Source of the DNA: a virus
Strand: one strand, 5' to 3'
DNA length: 64,000 bases
IMG/VR virus record: IMGVR_UViG_3300027777_000031
Location: 25,864-89,863 of that record
How positions within the stretch are numbered: position 1 is the first letter of the stretch; every line of letters begins with the position of its first letter. Positions 28,092 to 54,679 of the stretch are shown one piece after another. Position numbers and translations under genes: made by a program. The notes under the pieces were generated by a model. The model saw only the letters and a list, made by a program, of their open reading frames with translations. It was not told where the DNA came from and did no database searches.

Positions 28092-28970
28092 GCTTAATAC
28101 GATGAGAATACTCGTCTTATTGAGAATCTTCGGAAGCATTATTTTTTCGCTTCTTTTCCACCATCTTTTGAATGGTAATCCTCATTGCCGATTGGTTAGA
28201 CCAATCACTCCTTGAGATATCATCTACTCTCTCATTATTCAACTCTCTTCAATCTTGCGAACTGACTCCGGATTCGACTCCGTAGAGGTTTTTGGCGAGA
28301 ATACATTCAGACTTGCGGTCATCCTGTGCAACGAACGGCTCGTTACTATGTAGGCAACTTGTCGACGATACCTGACAGACACTTTTGCTCTTTTCTGTTT
28401 AGTTTTTCACCATATTGAAAATAGTTAACGTGTTGTGGATGTGTCCAAGTAGAGGTCTGTCTTAGGCTTCATCATCTTTTGGACGAAGAAATACCAACCT
28501 ACTCGGTAGAGTGTCCCCACTCTCATATTTTAAGAATTCTTCAAATCAAAATCTTGGTAGATGTTTGATAAGGATAATGACAGCACCACCTGTTACTTAT
28601 CTTGTCTTTCGACTTTAAGATTTCTCTCATATTGGAACCCGCAATAATTAAGTTGGATAACCTAACTTCTTACTTGATTCCTATCACTTATTCCTGTTGG
28701 AGTTCCCCCCTCAACCGAAAGACCCACATCTCCCGGTCACCCAACCACTTTCTCTAAAGCGTCGCCCTCAATACTGAAGGTCAGATGGTATGTGACTTGT
28801 ATACTCGAGTCCCATTTCTGAGACCGCAAACCTGTTAACACAACAGATTCACTTTAGCCCGGTTTCCCGGTTTATTTAAGGATGATATACCACCCATTAT
28901 CGTTTTTATAATACCTAAGTACTATATGGATAATCTAAAATGTTTAAGAACGTTTTGAGGTTTCCCTCAT
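28092..28970 (-). ncRNA. Large structured RNA, GOLLD-like
   Basis: About 870 nt with no ORF in the track and higher GC; many GNRA hairpins (CCGG-GAAA-CCGG, GTC-GAAA-GAC, GAC-C-GCAA-GTC); promoter TACCTTTG at 28979-28986 and a terminator; next to tRNA-like genes. Family assignment from size and context, not from a search. Confidence 0.65.
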
Positions 28971-29264: not shown

Positions 29265-29383
29265 TCTGTGATAAGACCTTAAGATTTACAAATTCGTAGG
29301 TCACCCATTCTTTACTACCTAAAACTCGCACTCCCGGCAGGGATAGTCTGCTGTAATAGGTCTATCTGCTATCTTATCACAGA
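29265..29383 (-). ncRNA. Putative small structured RNA
   Basis: 12-bp terminal inverted repeat TCTGTGATAAGA/TCTTATCACAGA; non-coding; strand assumed from context. Confidence 0.45.
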
Positions 29384-29390
29384 ATAAATT

Positions 29391-29479
29391 ATGTGTGTGT
29401 ACGCTCTACCATTATAGCTAAACCTTGGTCATCACGATTACGGTTGTTGGAATCGAACCAACGACTTTACACTACACAT
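29391..29479 (-). ncRNA. Circularly permuted tRNA-like RNA (YrlA-like architecture)
   Basis: Order: terminal stem, AAGTC, T-arm GTTGG-TTCGATT-CCAAC, looped acceptor-like stem, D-arm TAGCTATAATGGTAGAGC, closing stem. Confidence 0.7.
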
Positions 29480-29483
29480 TTTG

Positions 29484-29575
29484 TGGTATCGGCAGGGTTC
29501 GAACCTACGGCACAGAGTCTTTCGTTACTCCTGCTCTACCAAAGGAAGACGAATCCCCCACTGAGCTACAATACC
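29484..29575 (-). ncRNA. Aberrant tRNA-like RNA
   Basis: Normal acceptor and T-arm; UUCG hairpin inserted in the D-loop; 8-nt anticodon loop AACGAAAG without U33. Confidence 0.65.
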
Positions 29576-29584
29576 ATTATAAGT

Positions 29585-29664
29585 TAGTGGACGTATGCTC
29601 TACCATCTGAGCTACAGCTTTTAATCACCGGAGGGATTTGAATCCTCGACACAACGTCCACCTA
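29585..29664 (-). ncRNA. Second circularly permuted tRNA-like RNA
   Basis: GTGGACGT stem, T-arm GAGGA-TTCAAAT-CCCTC, CGGT-loop-GCTG, D-arm TAGCTCAGATGGTAGAGC, ACGTCCAC. Confidence 0.7.
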
Positions 29665-29731
29665 TATTTTCAATAATTTTAAGAACTTTATTTCTTCTAC
29701 AAAGATAATACTTTTATTTTAATATATCAAA

Positions 29732-44244: not shown

Positions 44245-45105
44245 TTAGAATTTGTTCCCACAAGAAGAACAAAATTTATCGGAATCTTTTTTTCTTTTTT
44301 TTCCGCAGTTAGTACAATACACTTTTAAGTCTTGTTTTTCAAAAACCTTTTGTGACACCGGAAGAATCTTCCATATAGATGTTGCACAAGTATAATGGTT
44401 AAAAGTTTTATCCACAGTTTTGAAAGATTGGTCAGATGAACCACCTTTTTCAACCCTACCTGTTTCAATAGAATTTTCACTATTATCTATTAAAGAATCC
44501 ATAGTAACTTCACTACGAGAATTACCTTTAGATTTTTTTGCACTTCGTAAATTTGGTCCCGCAAAAGTATTACTTGATGCCGTATTAAAACTAATACCTC
44601 CTGTATTAGATGTTGATGTAAAATTTAAATTTGTTGATGGTACCGAACCATTACTTACATAACCCCCCGTTACATTATAACTATTATAAGTGTTACAAGT
44701 TGGTATACCAAATGAACCCCCAATATAAGTTATAGGGTTATTCCACACCGGTTGTTTATATTCATCAAAGAAGTCAATAACAACATCCCCATTTCCGGCG
44801 ATGGCATCCAATACCTCATTTGATGTTCCATCAACCTCATAAGTTTCAAACTTAAATTTACGAGCGTCGTCAAGGTATCTTTCAAGAAATACTCTTTGTC
44901 CCGGTTTAAGAACAATTCCTCCTCCGGAGATATAACTTCCGTCAAGTTTGATTTTCGCTAATACTGTGGTTGATGAGGGGTTAAATAATTCTAGTTCAAA
45001 TTCTTCCCCGTTGTTTAGATAGACAGTTTGTCCAAATTGTTTAAGACGTTTTCTGTCTTTTGTGATATACGCACAAGGCGTACCTGTTTTTGTTTGGTAA
45101 TACAT
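44245..45105 (-). CDS. Hypothetical protein with C-terminal zinc ribbon
   Basis: CTNCG...CSSCG at the C-terminus. Confidence 0.7.
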   Translation of the reverse strand: MYYQTKTGTPCAYITKDRKRLKQFGQTVYLNNGEEFELELFNPSSTTVLAKIKLDGSYISGGGIVLKPGQRVFLERYLDDARKFKFETYEVDGTSNEVLDAIAGNGDVVIDFFDEYKQPVWNNPITYIGGSFGIPTCNTYNSYNVTGGYVSNGSVPSTNLNFTSTSNTGGISFNTASSNTFAGPNLRSAKKSKGNSRSEVTMDSLIDNSENSIETGRVEKGGSSDQSFKTVDKTFNHYTCATSIWKILPVSQKVFEKQDLKVYCTNCGKKRKKDSDKFCSSCGNKF

Positions 45106-45277
45106 AATTTCCTTATTTTATTTTTTATGTTTATTGAACTTCTCTTCGTTGGTATCAATTCCAACTCAAATGCCTCTGTGGACACGAGAACCTCAGCAAC
45201 AAGGTTTCATTTATAAATATAAGGATACTTTATTTTGTTGTAAATAAAAAACCCCCAAGTTTCATTGGAGGTTGTTG

Positions 45278-45349
45278 TGGCCTCGGGGAATCACGATATC
45301 CCAACCTTTTCGTTATGAGCGAACTGCTCCACCTTTGAGCTACGAGACC
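45278..45349 (-). tRNA. tRNA-CAT (probably Ile2; Met not excluded)
   Basis: Cloverleaf, loop CTCATAA, atypical T-loop ATCGTGA. Confidence 0.75.
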
Positions 45350-45388
45350 AATTATGGGTTTTTAATGAACCCACAAACATATGTCAAC

Positions 45389-45619
45389 TTATTGGTGGTG
45401 TTTCACATACCTACCAAATTTATCAACCCTCACAGAGAGTTTCTCCAATCTAAAGTTCCATTGTTTGAACTTTCCTAAGCCCGATTTAATTCGTGCTTGT
45501 TTAATCGCAGATTCCTCTGCCTTCTCACGTCCTTCTTCCGTAGTTTCTACGAAAAAAGTGGGAGCCTGAACACCGTTATAAACGGGGACTACTCTCCAAA
45601 TTCTCAATTTCTGAGTCAT
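45389..45619 (-). CDS. Hypothetical protein preceded by a uORF and hairpin
   Basis: 76 aa ORF. Confidence 0.6.
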   Translation of the reverse strand: MTQKLRIWRVVPVYNGVQAPTFFVETTEEGREKAEESAIKQARIKSGLGKFKQWNFRLEKLSVRVDKFGRYVKHHQ

Positions 45620-45688
45620 AATACTTGAATAATCAAGTACTACGTGGAGTTGGGTTGGTTGTTTTTCATATTAGTAAATATTATTCAG

Positions 45689-45773
45689 TATCCGGAAAGG
45701 GACTTGAACCCTCAATTTCTCTTCAGAAAACTAGATTTTAAGTCTAGCGTGTATACCATTCCACCACCCGGAT
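45689..45773 (-). tRNA. tRNA-Leu(TAA)
   Basis: CTAGA-CTTAAAA-TCTAG; long variable arm. Confidence 0.9.
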
Positions 45774-45999
45774 GTTTGGAAAAACTGATGAACACGTTAT
45801 CCATCTTTGACTTGAGTTAGTCGTTACCGTTTTTCCGTTTTTTTTGAGAGATTTCCCATTGAAGTAATGTCAATCTCGTCCTAAACCAAACCATACTTTC
45901 TTTTAAGGATAAGAAACTTCTAACTACCTATTTGATGCCACTGACTTTTCTTAACTACAAAAAACAGACTCACAAACTGAACCCCGAAAAAACGACTCG

Positions 46000-46116
46000 T
46001 GGATAGAGTAGGATTCGAACCTACAATAGTACCATACTTTTTCACCTGCCGGTTACTTCAAGGACTCGAACCTCATATTCCGATGCCTCGGACGCTTTAC
46101 CATTTACCACCTACCC
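46000..46116 (-). ncRNA. tRNA-like RNA with two T-arms
   Basis: GGGTAGG/TCTATCC acceptor, TCCGA-GGCA-TCGGA hairpin, two GGTTCGA.TCC arms. Confidence 0.6.
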
Positions 46117-46122
46117 ATTTTG

Positions 46123-46196
46123 AGCTTCCTGTCAGAATCGAACTGACTCTATTCCGGGTTACAAATCCGGTGCACCACCATTCGTGCGTAGGAAGC
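46123..46196 (-). tRNA. tRNA-Thr(TGT)
   Basis: Loop TTTGTAA, cloverleaf. Confidence 0.85.
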
Positions 46197-46351
46197 CTGT
46201 CGCAGAGCATTTTTTTTAAGTAGAAGTCAGCTCTGTCTCTTAAACTACTATTTTAACATCATCACTTCGGCCACATTGGGAGAACCGCAGTTCCCACGTT
46301 GTTTAAGGAGGTAGTTGGCGGTGTATCACACCGAGTTATGATAATGTATTG

Positions 46352-46424
46352 TACCTCAGGAGGGAATCGAACCCTCAAAATCTTGTTCCTAAGACAAGCG
46401 TGTCTACCGTTCCACCACCAAGGC
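46352..46424 (-). tRNA. tRNA-Leu(TAG), short variable loop
   Basis: CTTGT-CTTAGGA-ACAAG. Confidence 0.85.
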
Positions 46425-46432
46425 AATTGTTG

Positions 46433-46504
46433 TACCCTCAATAGGACTCGAACCTATATCAAAACATTAGAAGTGTCTTATTCTATCCCTTGAACTATGA
46501 AGGC
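46433..46504 (-). tRNA. tRNA-Arg(TCT)
   Basis: Loop CTTCTAA. Confidence 0.88.
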
Positions 46505-46511
46505 AATTTTG

Positions 46512-46585
46512 AGTAACTAGCCGGTCTCGAACCGGCCTTATTCCACATTGGAAGTGTGGTGCCATACCTACTAGGCGATAGTTAC
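46512..46585 (-). tRNA. tRNA-Gly(TCC)
   Basis: CCACA-CTTCCAA-TGTGG. Confidence 0.88.
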
Positions 46586-46634
46586 ATTTTAAACTTATAC
46601 CTTGAAAATAAATTTAAATTTTAAATCTATAAGT

Positions 46635-46808
46635 TTATACTTTTGTTTTAAGAGTTTCAATCTCTTTGTTGATTCTCTTCTTATCAGAATCAGTTAATGG
46701 AACTTTCACATCTCGTGTCCCTTTTTCGGTTTTTAAACCATTTTTTAATTGTTTCTCCAACATTTCAAGAACTCTTTGTTGTCTTGACCTTTTTGCTGCT
46801 GTTGCCAT
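46635..46808 (-). CDS. Small basic protein (57 aa)
   Basis: Manual translation MATAAKRSRQQRVLEMLEKQLKNG...KRINKEIETLKTKV. Confidence 0.6.
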   Translation of the reverse strand: MATAAKRSRQQRVLEMLEKQLKNGLKTEKGTRDVKVPLTDSDKKRINKEIETLKTKV

Positions 46809-46831
46809 ACGGATTTAGTTATTAAATTAGT

Positions 46832-46903
46832 TGCAAATCTCAGGAATTGAACCTGATTAAGTCAGCTTATGAGACTGATGAGATACCTTACCTCCCGACT
46901 GCT
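46832..46903 (-). tRNA. tRNA-Met(CAT), bulged acceptor
   Basis: TCAGT-CTCATAA-GCTGA; T-arm TCAGG-TTCAATT-CCTGA. Confidence 0.7.
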
Positions 46904-46918
46904 GTGTATTCTTCTTTG

Positions 46919-46994
46919 TAGCGAAGTGCAGGTACCGCCCCTGCCTTATGTCAAGTTTATGAGACTTGCGGAAACTCTATGCCCCCCACTCGCG
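46919..46994 (-). tRNA. tRNA-Met(CAT), atypical
   Basis: CAAGT-CTCATAA-ACTTG; T-loop GGCGGTA; bulged acceptor. Confidence 0.6.
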
Positions 46995-46999
46995 ATGTA

Positions 47000-47668
47000 T
47001 TATTTTTCGTAATTTTTTTTCCATTTTCTAATAGTATTATCACTAACACCATATTTTTTTCCACACCCTCTATAACCTAAAGAATTAATTTCATCAATCA
47101 ATTGAAAGTAATTAGGTCTCTCAACTTTACGTTGTTTAATTTGAGAACATTTAACACAATTTTTATTTTTTTCAAAAGTTGGATTACCACATTCACATTT
47201 ATGAATAACTTTATCAAGATGTTTCACATTTCTACCTCCGTGAGTAGGTAATCCTGCATTACAGTTAGGACAAACAATTCTTAAATTTTCAATTCTATTG
47301 TCATTATTAACACCATTTATATGGTCTAAAATTAAACTAATTTTATTACCCATCCAATTTTCATCTTGACCACAAATTTCACAACATTTTTGTTTTAATT
47401 CTTCTTTGTAAAGTCTCTCTTTCAAAATAGTTGTATTTAAGTATAATGAATTTTCAACTAAAATATCAACTAATTCTATTTTTTTCTTACCTTTACCACC
47501 GGATGATGTTAGTCTAAAATGATTTGTCGGAATTTCAAATAGATTAATATATTTTTTAACTGTTTGTCTATTACCATAAAATGGTTGTAAACCTAATTTC
47601 TTTGTTACTTCCGAATAATTGTTAGATGAATTAACAATCTTTTCTAAAATTTCTTTTGAATATCTCAT
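47000..47668 (-). CDS. HNH endonuclease within the tRNA array
   Basis: CEICG, LDHINGVNNDNRIENLRIVCPNCN, C-terminal HTH. Confidence 0.85.
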   Translation of the reverse strand: MRYSKEILEKIVNSSNNYSEVTKKLGLQPFYGNRQTVKKYINLFEIPTNHFRLTSSGGKGKKKIELVDILVENSLYLNTTILKERLYKEELKQKCCEICGQDENWMGNKISLILDHINGVNNDNRIENLRIVCPNCNAGLPTHGGRNVKHLDKVIHKCECGNPTFEKNKNCVKCSQIKQRKVERPNYFQLIDEINSLGYRGCGKKYGVSDNTIRKWKKNYEK

Positions 47669-47733
47669 AATCTGTCTTTTATTATAAATATCTCGAACTC
47701 TTAAAAAGTGACAGAAATTTATATTTTTTTTTG

Positions 47734-47809
47734 CGGTCCCGGAGGGTTTCGAACCCTCATTTTAGAGCAGTGACAGTGCAATTCCCCTACCAATGGGGCT
47801 CACAAGACC
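47734..47809 (-). tRNA. tRNA-Asp(GTC)
   Basis: Loop CTGTCAC. Confidence 0.8.
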
Positions 47810-47908
47810 AAAATTTCAATTCAAAGGTGACAATCCTATAACAATTGAAGGAGAAAGAACCGTGTTTCCCGGGTAGTGACTTCCCGTATTCTGTCTTTCT
47901 GTTTTTTG

Positions 47909-47980
47909 TGGAGATATAGGGAATTGAACCCTAATTTACGATTTGCAAAACCATTGTAATAGCCGTTATACTATATCCCC
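47909..47980 (-). tRNA. tRNA-Ala(TGC)
   Basis: G3.U70 pair, loop TTTGCAA. Confidence 0.9.
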
Positions 47981-47985
47981 AATTG

Positions 47986-48057
47986 TAGCCCCACCGGGAG
48001 TCGAACCCGACTTTTTTGGATGAAAACCAAATGTCCTAACCGATAGACGATAGGGCC
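47986..48057 (-). tRNA. tRNA-Glu(TTC)
   Basis: TTTGG-TTTTCAT-CCAAA. Confidence 0.9.
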
Positions 48058-48102
48058 GTTTTATATTACCAATACGTCAATTAACTTGTTTCAGTTTGAT
48101 GG

Positions 48103-48356
48103 TACAAAGATAATACTTTATTTCATTATACCAAACTTTTTTTATCCTTCTCTATCCTCAATAGAAAACCCTGCACTATCGTATTCAGGTCCTTGGTCTT
48201 CTTCCGGAGTGACATTTACCAATCCGTATGTTACACCTAAAATGGGAGAATATTCCATCCCTAACTCTTCATTCATCGTTTTTTTGTCCGACATAATAAT
48301 TACATTTTTAATTCGTTACAAAGATAATACTTTATTTCATTATACCAAACTTTTTT
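48103..48356 (-). repeat. 40-nt direct repeat containing the promoter, flanking a 50-aa acidic ORF
   Basis: TACAAAGATAATACTTTATTTCATTATACCAAACTTTTTT at 48103-48142 and 48317-48356; ORF MSDKKTMNEELG...IEDREG between them. Confidence 0.8.
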
Positions 48357-48357
48357 A

Positions 48358-48393
48358 CAAAAAAAAATCCACCTTTTTTGAAGATGGATTTTT
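48358..48393 (-). terminator. Attenuator terminator upstream of tRNA array 2
   Basis: AATCCATCTT-loop-AAGGTGGATT followed by a T tract. Confidence 0.75.
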
Positions 48394-48419
48394 GAATATT
48401 TTTTTTACTTAAATATATA

Positions 48420-48494
48420 TCATACCATCTGCTTCCAAGTTGTATCTCTACCCTCAGTTCCTGCTATCGTAAGTAATATGTTTAAAGTTTGCAT
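48420..48494 (-). CDS. Putative leader peptide 2, MQTLNILLTIAGTEGRDTTWKQMV
   Basis: 24 codons ending shortly before the terminator; codons match array 2 tRNAs. Confidence 0.7.
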   Translation of the reverse strand: MQTLNILLTIAGTEGRDTTWKQMV

Positions 48495-48566
48495 TTGTTG
48501 TGTTATTGTAATTTCTAATAAATATATACCTTTTTATAAAAGTGTCAAGTATTGGTAAGATTTATT

Positions 48567-48911
48567 TTAATTATCCCAAATATTTTTATCTTTATTCCTT
48601 TTAAGGGATTTTTTATATTCAATAACTTTCTTTGGATTTATGAATCGAACCCCATTATAAACGAACGAGTGATTATCAATTAAGTCATCAATATCGTATT
48701 TGGGCCAATTATTGAAAAATTCAATATCTTTGGTTCTATATTCACCTTCATCATTAAATTCCCATTTTGATGGTCGTATAATCACATCTAAGTCATTAAC
48801 ATCATCAATCATACCGGTGATTACTAATGGCGCGGAGCCAAAAACCGCATAATCCTCAGAATCTAAGTTATAGTCCTTGAGTTTATCCATTAAAAATTTA
48901 AAGTTTTTCAT
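48567..48911 (-). CDS. Small nucleotidyltransferase-like protein
   Basis: YAVFGSAPL...NDLDVII; C-terminal RNKD. Confidence 0.6.
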   Translation of the reverse strand: MKNFKFLMDKLKDYNLDSEDYAVFGSAPLVITGMIDDVNDLDVIIRPSKWEFNDEGEYRTKDIEFFNNWPKYDIDDLIDNHSFVYNGVRFINPKKVIEYKKSLKRNKDKNIWDN

Positions 48912-48930
48912 ATTGATAAATATAAAGAAA

Positions 48931-49126
48931 AAAGTTTAACAACCCCGCCCTCGGGTCGTAGCGGGCTACAATGGGAATTCCGGAATTGGTCGTGTTCCTC
49001 ACCGGCGTACCAGTCCTTATCTATCCTTTACCGTATTTCTACGGTGCTACTGTTGGGAGGTCACCCCTATCAACACGACTAGTCCATTAGTTTTTTAGAG
49101 TATGGACACCCCGGTTGTTAAACTTT
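48931..49126 (-). ncRNA. Putative structured RNA of about 195 nt
   Basis: 14-bp terminal inverted repeat AAAGTTTAACAACC/GGTTGTTAAACTTT; GC-rich internal hairpins; strand assumed. Confidence 0.55.
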
Positions 49127-49135
49127 TTATTTTAA

Positions 49136-49287
49136 AAAAACAGACAATGAGGATTCTCCGATATTTCAGTCTTAGGGGACTAGACGGGCATCATACCCGT
49201 GTTTACCCTCGGCGGTCTCTTGGTTTGATTGATTACTCCGAACCTCACCCCTACACTACCACTGACGTAAGTTATAGGTCTGTTTTT
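49136..49287 (-). ncRNA. Putative structured RNA of about 150 nt
   Basis: Terminal stem AAAAACAGAC/GTCTGTTTTT; internal ACGGG-CATCATA-CCCGT; strand assumed. Confidence 0.45.
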
Positions 49288-49357
49288 ATTTCTTCAGGAG
49301 AGACCCCCAAGGGATAACCATAACGGAATTACCCTTGACTCACTCTCCGTCTTCTTG

Positions 49358-49464
49358 CCCTTCCAGTGGGAATCGAACCCACATACTCTTAATACATTCT
49401 TGGGATGGTTACCGGAGGGAGATGTATTCGTCTCTGTGTTTTGCTCTTGTTAAACTACAGAAGG
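49358..49464 (-). ncRNA. tRNA-like RNA with expanded anticodon domain
   Basis: CCTTCTG/TGGAAGG acceptor, D-arm, T-arm GTGGG-TTCGATT-CCCAC; about 55 nt middle with an AATACAT/ATGTATT stem. Confidence 0.6.
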
Positions 49465-49470
49465 ATGTTG

Positions 49471-49542
49471 CACGCCGCCAAGGACTCGAACCCTGAACTT
49501 TGAGGTTGGAACTCAAAATGATAACCATTTCACCAACGACGC
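49471..49542 (-). tRNA. tRNA-Trp(CCA)
   Basis: TTGAG-TTCCAAC-CTCAA. Confidence 0.85.
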
Positions 49543-49593
49543 ATTTTACTGCTCAAATTTAAGACTATTTACTGCTCAAATTTAAGATTTTTG

Positions 49594-49663
49594 AGGTCTC
49601 GGTGGGAATCGAACCCACTCTGTAGATTTTGCAGACCTACCGGTCGCCACGACCATCAAGACC
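49594..49663 (-). tRNA. tRNA-Cys(GCA)
   Basis: Loop CTGCAAA, U73. Confidence 0.85.
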
Positions 49664-49735
49664 ATTTTAAAAAAACACCCGACCTGACCTGCCAGATATT
49701 ACGTGTCGTAGCGCTTTCGTTACGTAGCGGGTGTT

Positions 49736-50596
49736 TTATTTTACAACAATAAATTTTGTTTTTGGGTTCTCATTTATTTTATCATAAGGAACCACATTCT
49801 CAATTCGTTTATTGGCTATCTTAACATATTCTTCACTAATATCAATTCCTATAAAATTACGATTATTCAACTTAGACATTTTGGATGTTGTCCCGGAACC
49901 AACCATAGGGTCAAGAACAATATCACCCTCATTAGACCAACTCAATATATGGTCTTCAACAAGTTCTTCCGGAAATATTGCAGGATGTTCAAATGCGAAC
50001 GAATCTTTAGTTGAATAATTTTTACCAGTATTATATTGCCAAACATTATATCTATTACCATATTCCGCAATTGTGAAATCCGGCATTTCTTTTAATTCAC
50101 CATCTTTGGTCCTCATAACCCGTTTCCCAAAATTAGAATAACCTGCCCATTTGTTTTTTTTATCTTTCAATAGATTCACCGTTTTTGGTTTTCCTTTAGA
50201 AAATACAAACATATATTCAAAAACTTGAGAATAACGTTTTTTTTCGGGAAAAGGAGCTCCATTTTTCATATAAATCATTGTATCATACAATGTAAATCCT
50301 TGAGACATAAATCCTAATGCTTGTCTAAATGAACTCCCTGTTTCACCACCATTCTTTACTTGGTCACCAACAACCCATACGACAATACCACCATCTTTTG
50401 TGATTCTATATAATTCCGATACCATAGATTCAAAATCAAAACTAAAACCGGTTTCTTTAACTCCCGTAATTTTATTGTTATACGTTCTAAGATTATCGTA
50501 TGGTGGAGACGTAACAGTTAAGTCAACGTAATCATTTTGTATTTCCTTTACAATTTCAATAAAATCGCCAGTTGTGTTGTTATTTAATAATCTCAT
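49736..50596 (-). CDS. N6-adenine/N4-cytosine DNA methyltransferase (beta class)
   Basis: TSPPY precedes HPAIFP and DPMVGSGTT. Confidence 0.9.
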   Translation of the reverse strand: MRLLNNNTTGDFIEIVKEIQNDYVDLTVTSPPYDNLRTYNNKITGVKETGFSFDFESMVSELYRITKDGGIVVWVVGDQVKNGGETGSSFRQALGFMSQGFTLYDTMIYMKNGAPFPEKKRYSQVFEYMFVFSKGKPKTVNLLKDKKNKWAGYSNFGKRVMRTKDGELKEMPDFTIAEYGNRYNVWQYNTGKNYSTKDSFAFEHPAIFPEELVEDHILSWSNEGDIVLDPMVGSGTTSKMSKLNNRNFIGIDISEEYVKIANKRIENVVPYDKINENPKTKFIVVK

Positions 50597-51266
50597 AATT
50601 TACCGGGTTTAACTCTAAGTGATATATTTTTTGTTTAGGAATCACCCCTCCTTTAATTATACAGTTTTCTGTTAGATTATCAATGGACCAATCAGACATT
50701 CTAAAATCAAATGATGTTCTGTGACTATTATCTTTAGCATTTCCACTCCATTTATGTGAACCTAAATCAAATATTCCGGCAAACACTCCACTAAATAAAC
50801 CGTTATTGTTTGTTAACGATAACTTTTTTTCTCTATCAATTTTAAAATTAATTAATAAAAAATTATCAACTTTAGATGTTGATGAAGTTGAACCCTGCCA
50901 AGAATTATCATTTTGACTTAATTTAATCTCCAAGTAATATTTTTCATTAGTAGTAATATCAATAAAAACTAAATCATAACTTTTAACTATATTTGATTCT
51001 CTTTTTAAAACAACCCTTAAAAAAGATTTTTGGGACTCCAAATAATCGTTTAAATTGTACTTTAAAAAGGTATAAAAACTGTGAGACATTTGTGCCGTTA
51101 ATTGTGTGCCAATTTGATTAACCTCTTCTAAATCATAAAACTCATTAAGAGATTCATTGTTTTTACAAGCCCCGTAAAATTGTTGAACAATTAAATTGTT
51201 CTCTATGTGCAAAAACGCATAGTCCACAAAATTAACTCTTTTTAATTCATTTATTACTTTTTTCAT
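50580..51266 (-). CDS. Putative PD-(D/E)XK restriction endonuclease
   Basis: YDLVF...YLEIKLS; overlaps the methyltransferase start. Confidence 0.5.
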   Translation of the reverse strand: MKKVINELKRVNFVDYAFLHIENNLIVQQFYGACKNNESLNEFYDLEEVNQIGTQLTAQMSHSFYTFLKYNLNDYLESQKSFLRVVLKRESNIVKSYDLVFIDITTNEKYYLEIKLSQNDNSWQGSTSSTSKVDNFLLINFKIDREKKLSLTNNNGLFSGVFAGIFDLGSHKWSGNAKDNSHRTSFDFRMSDWSIDNLTENCIIKGGVIPKQKIYHLELNPVNYEIIK

Positions 51267-51318
51267 AGTTATTTATTTTTCAACAAAGATACAACTATTT
51301 TTTAATCTGCCAAAATTT

Positions 51319-51828
51319 TTAGAAAAATAAATATGGTTCCCACTCTTTTGGAATTTCGTGATGAACCTGTTTCATCAACATCAAATAGTGTGGTCGTCTT
51401 GGCTGTGGAATTTCCTTACCATACTCTTCCAAAGTCAAATTTGACTTCTCACTATTACATTTTCTACAAGCCGTAACCAAGTTGTCCCAAGAATCTTTCC
51501 CCCCCTTAGATTGGGGGATTACGTGGTCTAATGTCAATGTCTTTCTATTACTATCACCACAATACACACACTCAAAGTTATCTCTACGATAAACATTCTC
51601 TCGACTTAAAGGAACTTTTTGAATTACCTGATTCACATATTTATAAACCCGGATAATTGATGGTTTTTTGATATCCAATTCAGGATTCACTAATTTAAAT
51701 GATTCCGGATGTTCGTGGACGATGTCGGCATTACCTTTATAAGAAATGACGAAAGCCCTCTCTGTGGATATAATACTCCTTGCCATAAAACTTGAATCCA
51801 AAACCAAAGTTTTTTGGTACTTACTCAC
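51319..51828 (-). CDS. HNH endonuclease (McrA-like)
   Basis: RDNFECVYCG, TLDHVIPQSKGG, NLVTACRKCNSEK. Confidence 0.88.
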   Translation of the reverse strand: MSKYQKTLVLDSSFMARSIISTERAFVISYKGNADIVHEHPESFKLVNPELDIKKPSIIRVYKYVNQVIQKVPLSRENVYRRDNFECVYCGDSNRKTLTLDHVIPQSKGGKDSWDNLVTACRKCNSEKSNLTLEEYGKEIPQPRRPHYLMLMKQVHHEIPKEWEPYLFF

Positions 51829-51862
51829 GACTTTTGATTTTTTAATTAAACATTCTTTTTTG

Positions 51863-51934
51863 TGACCCCGGAGAATTTCGAAATCTCGACTCCCAAGTTA
51901 AAAGCTTGGTACTCTACCGCTGAGTTACGAGGTC
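51863..51934 (-). tRNA. tRNA-Lys(TTT)
   Basis: CCAAG-CTTTTAA-CTTGG. Confidence 0.9.
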
Positions 51935-52018
51935 AATATTGAGCTCATTTTGTTTTGTTATTTGGCTCAAATTATAAGTAATTTGAGCTTAATAATCAAA
52001 CTCTATGAGCCACATTTG

Positions 52019-52092
52019 TAGGTGGTATGAGACTCGAACTCATAACCTCTTCGGTATCAGCGAAGGACTCCAACCAATTGAGCTAACCACCT
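52019..52092 (-). tRNA. tRNA-Ile(GAT)
   Basis: CTTCG-CTGATAC-CGAAG. Confidence 0.9.
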
Positions 52093-52156
52093 AAAATCTA
52101 ATTCTACGCTTCCCCCATACTGTTAGGGTTCTATAAATTAGTAACAATCTCCCTCG

Positions 52157-52229
52157 TCGAGAATGTACGATTCGAACGTCTCCTCATACGTCCAAGGTAT
52201 GAATGCAGCCTGGTTACACCTCATTCTCG
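52157..52229 (-). tRNA. tRNA-Pro(TGG)
   Basis: CATAC-CTTGGAC-GTATG. Confidence 0.8.
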
Positions 52230-52232
52230 TTT

Positions 52233-52415
52233 TTAACTTATTTTTAATTTTCCTGAACGATAATCTTCTTGCATTTGTCGTATTCTTTCGTCTCTTTTTT
52301 CAATACTCTTTTTTATCCTTTCAATTTTTTCAGGACTTGGGTTAGAATCAATTGTATAAACTACCCCCATTTCATCTAATTCTTTTAAGAATTCTTTTGT
52401 TTCAAATTTTTTCAT
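52233..52415 (-). CDS. Hypothetical protein (60 aa)
   Basis: Start MKKFETKEF; lies between two tRNAs. Confidence 0.55.
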   Translation of the reverse strand: MKKFETKEFLKELDEMGVVYTIDSNPSPEKIERIKKSIEKRDERIRQMQEDYRSGKLKIS

Positions 52416-52429
52416 AACATTATGTTTTG

Positions 52430-52515
52430 CGGAGAGCAGAATACTCGAAATCCATCCATTTAACCGAACCACTCGCTTAGCAGGCGGTGACAATACCCTG
52501 ATTGTTTTACTCTCC
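52430..52515 (-). tRNA. tRNA-Ser(GCT)
   Basis: GGAGAG acceptor, loop CTGCTAA, long variable arm, G73. Confidence 0.8.
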
Positions 52516-52521
52516 ATTTTG

Positions 52522-52594
52522 TGTCTCCAGCAGGAGTCGAACCCACATCATCTAGTCCGTAGCCAGACGTTTTATCCAATTAAACTATGGAGAC
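52522..52594 (-). tRNA. tRNA-Arg(ACG)
   Basis: TCTGG-CTACGGA-CTAGA. Confidence 0.88.
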
Positions 52595-52600
52595 ATTTTG

Positions 52601-52706
52601 TAGTCAGGACAGGACTTGAACCTGTACTGCCGGGAATTCAAATAGGAGCGATTAACACTATTCCCCAATTTACCTATTTTAGCGTTTACCATTCCGCCAC
52701 CTGACC
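52601..52706 (-). ncRNA. tRNA-like RNA, same family as 29913-29985
   Basis: GGTCAGGTGGCGGAATGGTAAACGC...ACAGGTTCAAGTCCTGTCCTGACT with a longer, unrelated middle. Confidence 0.6.
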
Positions 52707-52801
52707 AATTTGAGGTTGAGAACTCCTCTGTGTTATTCTTTACTGTTTGTTGCAACAACCTTGTAGCCACTCTATATCCTTTCTCAAGGGAACAACACAT
52801 T

Positions 52802-52990
52802 TTACTTCCATTGAGTTTTTCGGTTATACTTCCAAGTTTTATGTTCTCTGTATTTGTGAGAAAATTGTCCTTTTCTGTAATGAACACCCTCATCCCAATA
52901 AGATGGGTATTCAAACTTTAACCAAATCAATCTGTAATCTTTGGAACAAGTTGCCTTGTTCAATTTCATTCTGTTTGTGTTTACACTCAT
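52802..52990 (-). CDS. Small basic aromatic protein preceded by a uORF and hairpin
   Basis: MSVNTNRMKLNK...TWKYNRKTQWK. Confidence 0.6.
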   Translation of the reverse strand: MSVNTNRMKLNKATCSKDYRLIWLKFEYPSYWDEGVHYRKGQFSHKYREHKTWKYNRKTQWK

Positions 52991-53059
52991 AATCTCTGAG
53001 CCCATTGTTTAGTGGACCTCAAAGATTGTCTAATACTTTTTTCATAATATTTTAATTTT

Positions 53060-53132
53060 GGGTGTTAGGACGGTACCGCCCCGTCTTCTTTGGTTCCACA
53101 AACCAACGCTTCACTAAAAAGCTTCAAACACC
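53060..53132 (-). tRNA. tRNA-His(GTG)
   Basis: TTGGT-TTGTGGA-ACCAA; T-loop GGCGGTA. Confidence 0.8.
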
Positions 53133-53208
53133 ATATTACCCCACTTCACCGGCTTAACGGACCGGCTGCCATATGGGAGTGGGGGTTTCCTGTTATATCA
53201 GGACTCCG

Positions 53209-53280
53209 CGGACTTGGGGAATTTCGAAATCCCGACCCTTCACTTAACAGGCGAACGCTCTTCCTCTGAGCTACAAGTCC
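53209..53280 (-). tRNA. tRNA-Asn(GTT)
   Basis: Loop CTGTTAA. Confidence 0.88.
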
Positions 53281-53430
53281 AATTTTGACCACTATGTTAT
53301 TTTGCGAACGTATGAAGCTCGTATCATTATTAAATCATAGTAGTCCAAGGCGTTACGCATCCGTCTGTAACTTTACTTTTCTTGAGTCCCGATGTGGCCA
53401 CATCAACTCTGGGAACGATTACCTTGTTTG

Positions 53431-53503
53431 TGGGGATTACAGGTTACGCTCCTGTCTCTTTGATTCTTCAGACCAACGCTTTCACTAGATTAGCTTAATC
53501 CCC
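53431..53503 (-). tRNA. tRNA-Phe(GAA)
   Basis: Loop CTGAAGA; T-loop AGCGTAA. Confidence 0.8.
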
Positions 53504-53646
53504 AATTAAAATGATGGTGAGATACCCGTTTCGTCTCACTCTTGACTGCTTAATAGTAGTTTTACTGTGCACAGGCAGAGGGTTATAATTTCGTTTGTTG
53601 TAATCAGAATTGTCGACATTCTTTCATACTGAAATTCATCATTTTG

Positions 53647-53727
53647 TGGGACACTATGGAATCGAACCATACCCTACTACAGAACGGTGTTACAGACCGC
53701 TTATCACACCAGTGACTGAAGCATCCC
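53647..53727 (-). tRNA. tRNA-Tyr(GTA)
   Basis: GCGGT-CTGTAAC-ACCGT; long variable arm. Confidence 0.82.
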
Positions 53728-53777
53728 AATTAATTTATTCTATTTCACACTACCGGACTTTATCAGGATGTGGTTTT

Positions 53778-53846
53778 TACCTTGCAGGACTTGAACCTGC
53801 GTCTTATCGGCTCCCGCCGATTGTTCCACCAACCGCAACTAAAGGT
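53778..53846 (-). ncRNA. tRNA-like domain with 5-bp acceptor and tetraloop anticodon arm
   Basis: ACCTT/AAGGT, ATCGGC-GGGA-GCCGAT, GCAGG-TTCAAGT-CCTGC. Confidence 0.5.
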
Positions 53847-53858
53847 TGAATAAATTTG

Positions 53859-53929
53859 TACCCCGAGATGGAATTGAACCACCACCATTTGTATGTAAGA
53901 CAAATACGCTTCCATTACGCCATCGGGGC
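53859..53929 (-). tRNA. tRNA-Val(TAC)
   Basis: TTTGT-CTTACAT-ACAAA. Confidence 0.88.
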
Positions 53930-53935
53930 AAATTG

Positions 53936-54003
53936 TACCGAGAAATGGTAACGCTCCATTCTATAGTCGGATATGAGCCGTCTATGGTCCTTGACCTCTC
54001 GAT
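53936..54003 (-). tRNA. tRNA-Met(CAT), reduced D-arm
   Basis: Loop CTCATAT; T-loop AGCGTTA. Confidence 0.55.
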
Positions 54004-54058
54004 GTTTTTGGTGGACATAGATTCATCACCTACTCTTGGGTTTCCACCGAACCCTTCG

Positions 54059-54130
54059 TTACCCCTGAGAGAATCGAACTCCCCCCGCGTGGACCAAAAC
54101 CACGTGTACTAACCGATATACGAAGGGGCA
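54059..54130 (-). tRNA. tRNA-Gln(TTG)
   Basis: CGTGG-TTTTGGT-CCACG; U1-A72. Confidence 0.88.
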
Positions 54131-54232
54131 AAATATTTTTTAGTTAAAGAACGGTTACCACAATTACGTTCGCCCCGGACTCTACTCCGGACATTCTTTT
54201 TTGGGTGTGGATTAAACTATTTAACTAACCCG

Positions 54233-54320
54233 CGGAAGGAGTGGGACTCGAACCCACACGTGTGTTACCACCAACGGTTTTCAAGACCGCGACCCGTAGA
54301 CCGACTTGGCTTACCCTTCC
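54233..54320 (-). tRNA. tRNA-Ser(TGA)
   Basis: GCGGT-CTTGAAA-ACCGT; long variable arm. Confidence 0.88.
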
Positions 54321-54409
54321 ATTTTTTCTTACCAATATTTCAAATAACTTGTTCCTTTATTTTGATGGGACAAAGGTAATCCTTTTTTTCTAACTTCCAA
54401 TTTTTTTAT

Positions 54410-54443
54410 AAAAAAAAATCCTGAACTTTTTGAGTTCAGGATT
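54410..54443 (-). terminator. Attenuator terminator upstream of tRNA array 1
   Basis: AATCCTGAACT-CAAAA-AGTTCAGGATT followed by a T tract. Confidence 0.8.
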
Positions 54444-54467
54444 CTTATTATATGTTATGATTAATTT

Positions 54468-54590
54468 TTATTCAAAAATAATATCACTTAATAAATCAGC
54501 TGAACTTGTATGCGAAATACGCGGATACGAACAATTACTAAATTGTTGGTTCCAAATTGAGACATTCATATGTTTATTAGTGTTTTTCAT
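54468..54590 (-). CDS. Putative leader peptide 1, MKNTNKHMNVSIWNQQFSNCSYPRISHTSSADLLSDIIFE
   Basis: 40 codons between promoter TAAGTTTG (54638-54645) and the terminator; codons match array 1 tRNAs. Confidence 0.72.
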   Translation of the reverse strand: MKNTNKHMNVSIWNQQFSNCSYPRISHTSSADLLSDIIFE

Positions 54591-54679
54591 TTTTCTTTTT
54601 TTTGTGGTATTTCTACCTGTGTTTCTTATAACTATCACAAACTTACGAAAAGTTTAATAAAAGTCAAATATTTTTTTTA

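Follow-up and report, generated by a model that had tools for sequence, protein, structure and literature searches.

Several enterobacterial attenuators are multivalent, including the ilvGMEDA leader, which carries Ile, Leu and Val codons, and the thr leader, which carries Thr and Ile codons. The trp and his leaders are attenuators for a single amino acid, and the pheM leader controls pheST. Here we describe two small units, leader 1 and leader 2, each of which precedes an array of transfer RNA (tRNA) genes in a 64,000-nucleotide (nt) stretch of virus DNA, hereafter the window. The window comprises bases 25864-89863 of the 89.9-kb IMG/VR virus record IMGVR_UViG_3300027777_000031, whose completeness is estimated by CheckV at about 30%. 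Each unit contains a promoter, a short open reading frame (ORF) rich in codons that tRNAs from the downstream array can read, and an intrinsic terminator. We consider it reasonably probable that both units are ribosome-mediated transcription attenuators tuned to their own arrays.

By analogy, the closest known systems appear to be the multivalent ilv and thr leaders. As in those leaders, a short ORF with several kinds of regulatory codon is followed by an intrinsic terminator, and the last part of the ORF includes a strand that can pair alternatively with the 5′ arm of that terminator, such that the position of the ribosome would decide the outcome. However, the target here is a set of tRNA genes rather than of biosynthetic enzymes, and each of 10 to 14 tRNAs is sampled between one and three times, in place of runs of codons for one to three amino acids. 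In addition, no protector (1:2) pairing was found in the leader RNA, so the default without a ribosome would be read-through, and a promoter lies between terminator and target. The trp, his and pheM leaders likewise sense charged tRNA via ribosome stalling, and pheST is a target in the translation apparatus, but these leaders respond to one amino acid through tandem codons, control protein-coding genes, and are cellular rather than phage systems. A T-box riboswitch also senses tRNA status and controls terminator read-through before translation-related genes, although it binds uncharged tRNA directly and without an ORF. An Rfam search of positions 28000-56000 at E values up to 1 yielded neither a T-box nor any other known leader family. 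No Rfam leader family, whether Thr, Trp, His or Leu leader or T-box, matched 48355-48550, and the Thr_leader model (RF00506) gave a sub-threshold score of 29.7 bits, versus a cut-off of 55, at 54410-54467, the site of the leader 1 terminator.

Phage morons, which are self-contained promoter-gene-terminator cassettes coding for a protein with its own function, resemble the two units in placing a promoter, a small ORF and a terminator between conserved genes. They differ in that here codon content is kept rather than the peptide, and the ORF appears to be wired to the terminator. Phage tRNA genes are usually treated as constitutive codon-usage helpers or as spares against tRNA-cleaving defences, and to our knowledge the control of their expression is largely unknown. 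A literature search, with sources available in part, found no leader-peptide control of tRNA genes in phages. The nearest case was the trn operon of Anabaena sp. PCC 7120, a long tRNA array described in two reports as silent until translation is impaired (PMC8421152; PMC10272220). Its control is described there as acting at the promoter and as involving direct repeats together with the RHH repressor TrcR (PMC8421152; PMC10272220), and in the main text of PMC8421152 the strings "leader peptide", "attenuat" and "terminator" have 0 occurrences. The trn operon is similar in that an accessory tRNA array rises under translational stress, and it differs in its promoter-level control and in residing on a cellular megaplasmid rather than in a phage. 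The type of switch proposed here is known; the tRNA-gene target and the polling of 10-14 tRNAs by one ORF appear to be new.

All tRNA genes in the window are on the minus strand, as are the elements of both units and of the regions between units and arrays given below. Array 2 (45277..48057) includes Glu-TTC, Ala-TGC, Asp-GTC, a tRNA with a CAT anticodon (46832-46902; 30.9 bits in Rfam), Gly-TCC, Arg-TCT, Leu-TAG, Thr-TGT, a tRNA-like element (46000-46116), Leu-TAA and another CAT tRNA (45277-45349), with an HNH endonuclease gene and small ORFs interspersed. Array 1 (49470..54320) includes Ser-TGA, Gln, Val, Tyr, Phe, Asn, His, Arg-ACG, Ser-GCT, Pro-TGG, Ile-GAT, Lys, Cys and Trp. Phe-GAA, Ser-GCT and Pro-TGG were called only at a lowered ARAGORN threshold, and array 1 has 14 kinds when they are counted.

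The leader 2 unit begins with a promoter (48519..48548) of the form TTGACA-16-TATATT, which has 11 of 12 consensus matches and is kept in relatives whose flanks diverge. The same segment can alternatively be read as (C)TTG-N19-TATATTTA, near the Bacteroidota-type -33/-7 motif. The ORF (48494..48420; 24 codons plus stop; MQTLNILLTIAGTEGRDTTWKQMV) starts about 25 nt past the -7/-10 element of the promoter and is preceded by an A-rich 5′ untranslated region (UTR) that has no Shine-Dalgarno sequence and is unpaired in the minimum free energy (MFE) fold. By its sequence, the ORF is short, promoter-proximal and apparently able to be translated. The terminator stem (48393-48363) is followed by a tract of nine U residues that ends at 48359 in a terminator scan, for a total extent of 48359..48393. 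This stem of 9-13 base pairs (bp) is 99.6% paired in 22 sequences, and one of its pairs changes from UA to CG in 10 of them.

The codons of leader 2 are identical to those listed in the first-pass annotation of this DNA (ATG CAA ACT ...), which claimed that array 2 reads 17 of the first 19 codons and that every array member is represented. The first claim is borne out under loose wobble rules, wherein U34 reads a whole four-codon box and CAT stands for both Met and Ile2. Under these rules array 2 reads 17/19 of codons 1-19 and 18/24 of all codons, and the same 26 codons make up 0.448 of those in the record's 72 ORFs of at least 120 amino acids (binomial probabilities of 6.6e-5 and 0.0026, respectively). 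The second claim holds for the 10 tRNA kinds that were originally counted, all of which are sampled within codons 1-19; the array also includes a second CAT tRNA and the element at 46000-46116. Only one of 318 ATG-initiated ORFs of 20-40 amino acids covers all 10 kinds within 19 codons, and this ORF is leader 2 itself. Among 22,743 windows of 19 codons taken from long ORFs, four do so, none of which also has 17 of 19 codons read by the array.

The leader 1 unit (54406..54668) has the same design. Its promoter (54668-54638) is a perfect copy of the motif TTTG-N18-21-TAnnTTTG, which we take to be the Bacteroidota housekeeping promoter and call the host-type promoter; this motif is present 18 times in the window versus 3.2 expected. 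A GNRA hairpin in the 5′ UTR (54617-54607) is followed by an ORF of 40 codons (54590-54468; MKNTNKHMNVSIWNQQFSNCSYPRISHTSSADLLSDIIFE), which includes an antiterminator strand, AGTTCAG (54506-54500), that pairs with CTGAACT (54439-54433) in the terminator (54446-54414). Beyond the terminator are a further promoter and then tRNA-Ser. Codons 1-30 of leader 1 sample all 14 array 1 kinds (14/14). Such coverage of 14 kinds in 30 codons was seen in 0 of 21,951 windows of long ORFs and in 1 of 387 small ORFs, and simulated rates of full-kind cover were 8/200,000 (leader 1) and 173/200,000.

The preferences of the two leaders are reciprocal. Leader 1 has 30 codons for array 1 and 9 for array 2, whereas leader 2 has 6 for array 1 and 17 for array 2 (Fisher p = 1.4e-4). 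Isoacceptors obey the same split, with CGT and ATT in leader 1 and AGA and ATA in leader 2. We also evaluated the fit with a partition test that does not involve codon usage, in which the 24 tRNA kinds were shuffled into sets of 14 and 10. Using both whole ORFs, 23 of 200,000 random splits fit as well as the real split, and using the ORF cores (40/44 codons) a single split in 200,000 was as good. The partition result indicates that the codon fit is not due to chance, even given that the rules were chosen post hoc. Chance alone would very rarely give two leaders that fit their arrays this well, and we are highly confident that the codon-to-array match is real and selected.

The first-pass annotation also suggested, from the two ATA codons of leader 2, that the array 2 CAT tRNA at 45278 is a lysidine-modified Ile2 tRNA. 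These codons are indeed the best argument for such a tRNA, yet the argument is circular. The tRNA at 45277-45349 is probably not an initiator, as judged from its G1-C72 pair and from the lack of a run of three G-C pairs in its anticodon stem. Its nearest annotated phage tRNAs (76-78% identity; 24 records) fall into three groups of 8: those labelled tRNA-Ile, those labelled tRNA-Met, and those with another label or none. Results of blastn searches with both CAT tRNAs were ambiguous. No TilS-type PP-loop gene (PF01171) was found in the record that contains the window, where absence means little at about 30% completeness, or in three near-complete relatives.

Both units recur in relatives in a manner that favours codon content over peptide sequence. 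We retrieved 28 leader 2 loci through neighbouring genes, in which the promoter, ORF and terminator are 82-100% identical, and a degenerate pattern search identified the unit in 37 IMG/VR loci. The ORF is 24 codons long in 37/37 of these loci, which represent 14 distinct versions. The first tRNA after the unit is tRNA-Glu, the usual head of array 2, in 31 of the 34 loci (37 examined) where a tRNA was called downstream, and the distance from the leader stop to the first tRNA ranges from 153 to 936 nt. Variable sites are distributed 11/11/11 over the three codon positions. Replacements within codons 3-13 (I/T, L/I, T/L, A/T/I, G/A and T/A) remain array 2 codons, with the exception of three rare changes to Ser or Asn. 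Together, the even spread of variable sites and the nature of the replacements indicate that the peptide is not conserved as a protein would be and that codon class is kept. A protein search with the 40-amino-acid leader 1 peptide returned 12 matches at 84-95% identity and none more distant.

A second clade of relatives, clade B, provides a further comparison. This clade consists of a more distant relative of 75.7 kb with 28 tRNAs (G002) and seven additional loci, and its leader peptides are different: leader 2′ is MKHNLYMDLTTGAEGRNPRMEMV, and leader 1′, present in G002 only, is MRTSINHISNSVQPQFKNCWSADSYGSGGIS. The layout of ORF, terminator, host-type promoter and array is unchanged, and the start, stop and length of the leader 2 ORF are kept in all 45 loci (24 codons or, in clade B, 23). 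Between the clades the order of the peptide is shuffled while the set of kinds is kept. Moreover, in clade B the Tyr-GTA gene is located in array 2 (4/4 loci with enough sequence), and leader 2′ has a TAT codon. Leader 1′ has an ATA codon, and array 1 has a weak Ile-TAT candidate (28.6 bits, just below the Rfam cut-off). Overall, 34 of 48 codons and 21 of 22 kinds fit in clade B, values matched by 381 and 305 of 200,000 random splits. The misfits are Arg-ACG, which is unsampled, and the Lys, His and Asn codons of array 1 with which leader 2′ opens.

Near its end, the leader 2 ORF contains a strand, AGATGG (48430-48425; codons 22-24), that is complementary to CCATCT (48387-48382) in the 5′ arm of the terminator. 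Both strands are present as first proposed, and the location of AGATGG 3-8 nt before the stop, corresponding to the E and P sites when a ribosome occupies the stop codon, agrees with the prediction that a terminating ribosome would cover it. When the RNA is folded as a nascent transcript, before the 3′ arm is made, the MFE structure is the antiterminator in both leaders, at -8.0 kcal/mol for leader 2 and -12.8 kcal/mol for leader 1. The corresponding terminator hairpins are at -9.1 and -13.9 kcal/mol. Such near-equal predicted energies are what a kinetic switch would need.

The stronger case for alternative pairing comes from leader 1, wherein the 7-bp antiterminator (codons 29-31) is paired in 20/20 distinct sequences. 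In 5 of these 20, the terminator arm reads ..AATC.. and the ORF reads GATTCAG, so two pairs have changed on both sides. The 3′ arm of the terminator stays AGTTCAG in the same five sequences, and one terminator pair is lost. We regard this compensatory evidence, as read from the aligned sequences, as good but not overwhelming. A helper hairpin formed by the ORF end and spacer lies between the antiterminator strands; it carries the stop codon in the loop and shows a CG/UA swap that divides the sequences 10 versus 10. This hairpin is lineage-specific, and RNAalifold retained only the 7-bp closing helix in the region.

These features suggest the following mechanism. The leader 2 promoter would start a short RNA whose 24-codon ORF uses the codons of the tRNAs encoded downstream. 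When decoding is fast, the ribosome at the stop codon would sit on GAUGG/AGAUGG, the terminator hairpin would form, and the RNA would end at the U-tract. If a ribosome stalls at any sampled codon, or if no ribosome is present, the strand would remain free and would pair with the terminator's 5′ arm immediately after its synthesis. With the terminator blocked, transcription would pass the array's own promoter into the tRNA genes and add to basal expression. The scheme supposes three things: translation of the ORF, switching of termination by stalled ribosomes, and a signal given by how well the array's own tRNAs are supplied; it also assumes that transcription and translation are coupled in the host. 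A wider role may tentatively be proposed, although we think it rather doubtful as a whole. The mini-ORF could be a "test message" that polls every tRNA species of the array, through which the phage would detect depletion caused by host codon-usage mismatch, shut-off, anticodon nucleases or other tRNA-targeting defences and would transcribe the array that replaces them. In that case, a trp-style attenuator would form a tRNA-homeostasis or counter-defence circuit.

The promoters that follow the terminators bear directly on this mechanism. A host-type promoter (copy 1, 48349-48317; TTTG-N19-TATCTTTG) follows the leader 2 terminator and is kept at this location in relatives, and a second copy (48135-48103) directly precedes tRNA-Glu. 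These are two identical 33-nt segments, with motifs at 48349-48319 and 48135-48105 that fit TTTG-N19-TAnnTTTG, as the first-pass annotation had cautioned in noting downstream promoters at 48319 and 48105. The copies flank a 50-amino-acid ORF (48142..48294) with no Pfam family, which in relatives is either 44-100% identical or has no room to exist. In three loci (L055, L065 and L083) tRNA-Glu begins 153 nt past the leader stop, leaving no space for this ORF. We therefore consider the ORF to be an insertion flanked by a duplicated promoter and outside the switch, and the arrangement suggests that it was inserted through recombination at the promoter.

The earlier proposal, that a translated leader coded for its own array is wired to the terminator, is thus supported by the codon fit, its recurrence in clade B, the 37/37 ORFs, the nascent fold and the compensatory changes in leader 1. 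It is weakened with regard to full sampling, covariation in leader 2 and the intervening promoters, and a number of findings count against it. A well-matched host-type promoter, kept in relatives, lies between each terminator and its array, whereas the lack of a promoter between leader and target is a criterion for attenuators. Given these promoters (two here, plus the 50-amino-acid ORF), read-through can only add to promoter-driven expression of the array. The codon match depends on superwobble, as array 2 reads 12/19 and 13/24 codons under strict wobble rules, against a background of 0.355. Six of the 24 leader 2 codons (CAA, AAC, TGG, AAG, CAG and GTA) belong to array 1, and the AGY codons that correspond to the tRNA-like element at 46000-46116 are missing from the ORF. 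Extra lineage-specific tRNAs (Ser-CGA, Arg-TCG, Pro-TGG and others) are unsampled in 9 of 15 distinct leader/array pairs. Conversely, two loci (L054 and L068) retain Glu, Asp and Arg codons though ARAGORN calls no such tRNAs downstream. The antiterminator pairing of leader 2 is conserved and is the MFE fold of the nascent RNA, but no covariation above shuffled controls was detected in 22 sequences. GAUGG:CCAUC (5 bp) alone is invariant, and pairs 6 and 7 fail in 7 of the 22. An 8-bp helix (GGAGAUGG with CCAUCUCC or CCAUCUUC) is present in about half of these sequences and in clade B; the copy in the window, with 6 bp plus 1, is among the weaker ones. Furthermore, because the relatives all come from a single phage group, the compensatory change in leader 1 may have arisen only once.

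An additional point concerns codons 14-19 of leader 2 (GAG GGT AGA GAT ACA ACT), which are nearly invariant at every position. Codons 15-18 include the motif GGTAGAGATAC (48442..48452), which forms a GUA-GAGA-UAC hairpin and is invariant at all three codon positions. Within the window it has just one further exact copy, at 54607-54617 in the leader 1 5′ UTR, where the loop is GAGA, GAAA or GTGA in relatives, and the more general GNRA-loop mini-hairpin motif GGTAG-NR-ATAC is found exactly in the window only in the two leader units. Because the invariant block GAGGGTAGAGAT is a nucleotide motif, the E, G, R and D codons may be held constant by something other than sampling, which also weighs against attenuation by polling. 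We considered and set aside the idea that the EGRDTT block is a functional peptide, since it coincides with a nucleotide motif that also occurs in the untranslated part of leader 1. The block is more plausibly an RNA or DNA element, and GGTAGAGATAC may be a pause hairpin. Separately, codons 14-20 of leader 1 (54530-54551) form a perfect palindrome, ACAATT-TAGT-AATTGT, which is a hairpin in every predicted structure. This may be a transcription pause hairpin, which could explain the invariant QQFSNC.

Some of these observations would be expected if the switch existed but lacked array specificity. Read-through would then follow whenever translation slows or is absent, whether from amino-acid shortage, host shut-off or ribosome damage, and the codon mix would make the leader a general translation gauge. 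Consistent with this view, each kind is sampled one to three times only, giving weak leverage per tRNA; a quarter of leader 2 codons (6/24) belong to the other array; the leader ignores extra tRNAs; and the RNA folds by default into the antiterminator when no ribosome is present. However, a general gauge needs neither two reciprocal leaders nor an isoacceptor split (CGT versus AGA, ATT versus ATA) nor the Tyr shift in clade B, and we judge this explanation unlikely. It is also possible, if quite improbable in our estimation, that the codon-matched ORFs act in some other way: the leader RNA or peptide could work in trans, translation of the ORF could affect transcript stability or processing, or the terminator could insulate arrays that run from their own promoters. 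The promoter after each terminator, the conserved GNRA-hairpin motif in both units and the completeness of the units as promoter-ORF-terminator cassettes are compatible with such roles. These roles leave unexplained why complementarity between the ORF strand and the 5′ arm is kept by compensatory changes that are absent from the 3′ arm, and why each unit directly precedes the array whose codons it holds.

The cassette structure, with its own promoter and terminator, is also what an ordinary small phage protein gene of the moron type would have, and in that case the array fit would reflect chance and post hoc rules. Indeed, JGI annotation of leader 1 homologues lists hypothetical proteins only, the E-G-R-D-T-T block is conserved, and both the wobble rules and the 19-codon window were picked after the data were seen. 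Nevertheless, the joint fit, which recurs in clade B, is equalled by only 8-23 of 200,000 random splits, there is no excess of third-position substitutions, unlike what purifying selection on a protein would produce, and the order of the peptide is shuffled between clades with the kinds kept. A protein gene is therefore very unlikely. The invariance of the GAGA-loop hairpin block at all codon positions, and the somewhat more stable fold of the complete leader RNA relative to shuffled sequences (z = -2.59), could instead suggest a noncoding small RNA whose open frame is incidental. Against this, the many substitutions across the 45 loci leave start, stop and length intact in every one, the A-rich 5′ UTR stays unpaired in the MFE fold, and the stop is exactly beside the pairing strand. 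We give this last explanation hardly any weight. Array-tuned attenuation remains the reading that we favour. Assembled metatranscriptome contigs (four of six runs with parts of the region) offer hints only and are not used as evidence here, as they do not show ends, strand or level and may include DNA carry-over: one (X24) ends at 48359, the last terminator U; another (X22) bridges 48443-48136 and so crosses the terminator; and a third (X8) spans 54401-54676.

The virus itself is probably a giant (jumbo) freshwater phage of about 300 kb with a Bacteroidota host. Relatives that have genes in common with the window are contigs of 280-320 kb, and in a blastn search the window tRNAs resemble those of Flavobacterium and Cellulophaga phages. 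From these relatives, the promoter motif and the tRNA resemblance, we infer a jumbo phage and its likely host. The DNA sequencing runs that contain the region are freshwater or lake metagenomes, and the G+C content of the window is 31%. A distant blastn search of 44500-52000 against isolated phages returned matches only to tRNAs and the methylase. The one such record examined, that of Flavobacterium phage immuto 2-6A, carries four dispersed tRNAs and no comparable leader unit.

Several other features of the arrays and their surroundings merit description. The tRNA-like element at 46000-46116 scores 29.4 bits with the Rfam tRNA model, is called by ARAGORN as Ser-GCT with a 29-nt "intron", and has two T-arm-like GGTTCGA boxes. 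Within or between the arrays are two genes for HNH endonucleases and one for an N6/N4 DNA methylase (47000-47668, 51319-51828 and 49736-50596, minus strand), and array spacing differs widely between relatives. The roughly 50 nt from the array promoter to the first tRNA (48058-48105 and 54321-54370) are similar in both arrays (CCATCAAA..AAGTTAnTTGAnnTATTGGTAA) and are kept in relatives. This shared stretch may be a common pre-tRNA 5′ leader or a processing signal. Between tRNA-Trp and a gene for 114 amino acids is a segment of about 430 nt without an ORF (48935-49365, minus strand), whose G+C content of 43-48% exceeds the 31% of the window. It has a fold z score of -2.59, GNRA hairpins (for example, ACCGUA-GAAA-UACGGU) and a terminator-like hairpin at its end. 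It has no Rfam match, and one RNA-library contig spans 48943-49277 with zero differences. A Pfam search identified no family for the product of the 114-amino-acid gene. Elsewhere, a full-length GOLLD RNA (Rfam RF02032; 298.8 bits; E = 7.5e-85) is present at 28099-28506 (minus strand) near tRNA-like genes, with weak YrlA-like Rfam matches at 29374-29674.

If leader 1 and leader 2 act as proposed, they would represent a new use of attenuation, wherein the molecule sensed is the product of the controlled genes themselves, with direct feedback on the tRNA pool. To the extent that the sources of our literature search could be consulted, this would be the first such control of tRNA genes to be found. 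The leaders would provide a testable handle on the purpose of phage tRNA arrays, and each would be a compact natural sensor of the speed at which specific codons are decoded. Finally, the presence of two separately polled tRNA sets suggests that the sets answer different stresses.

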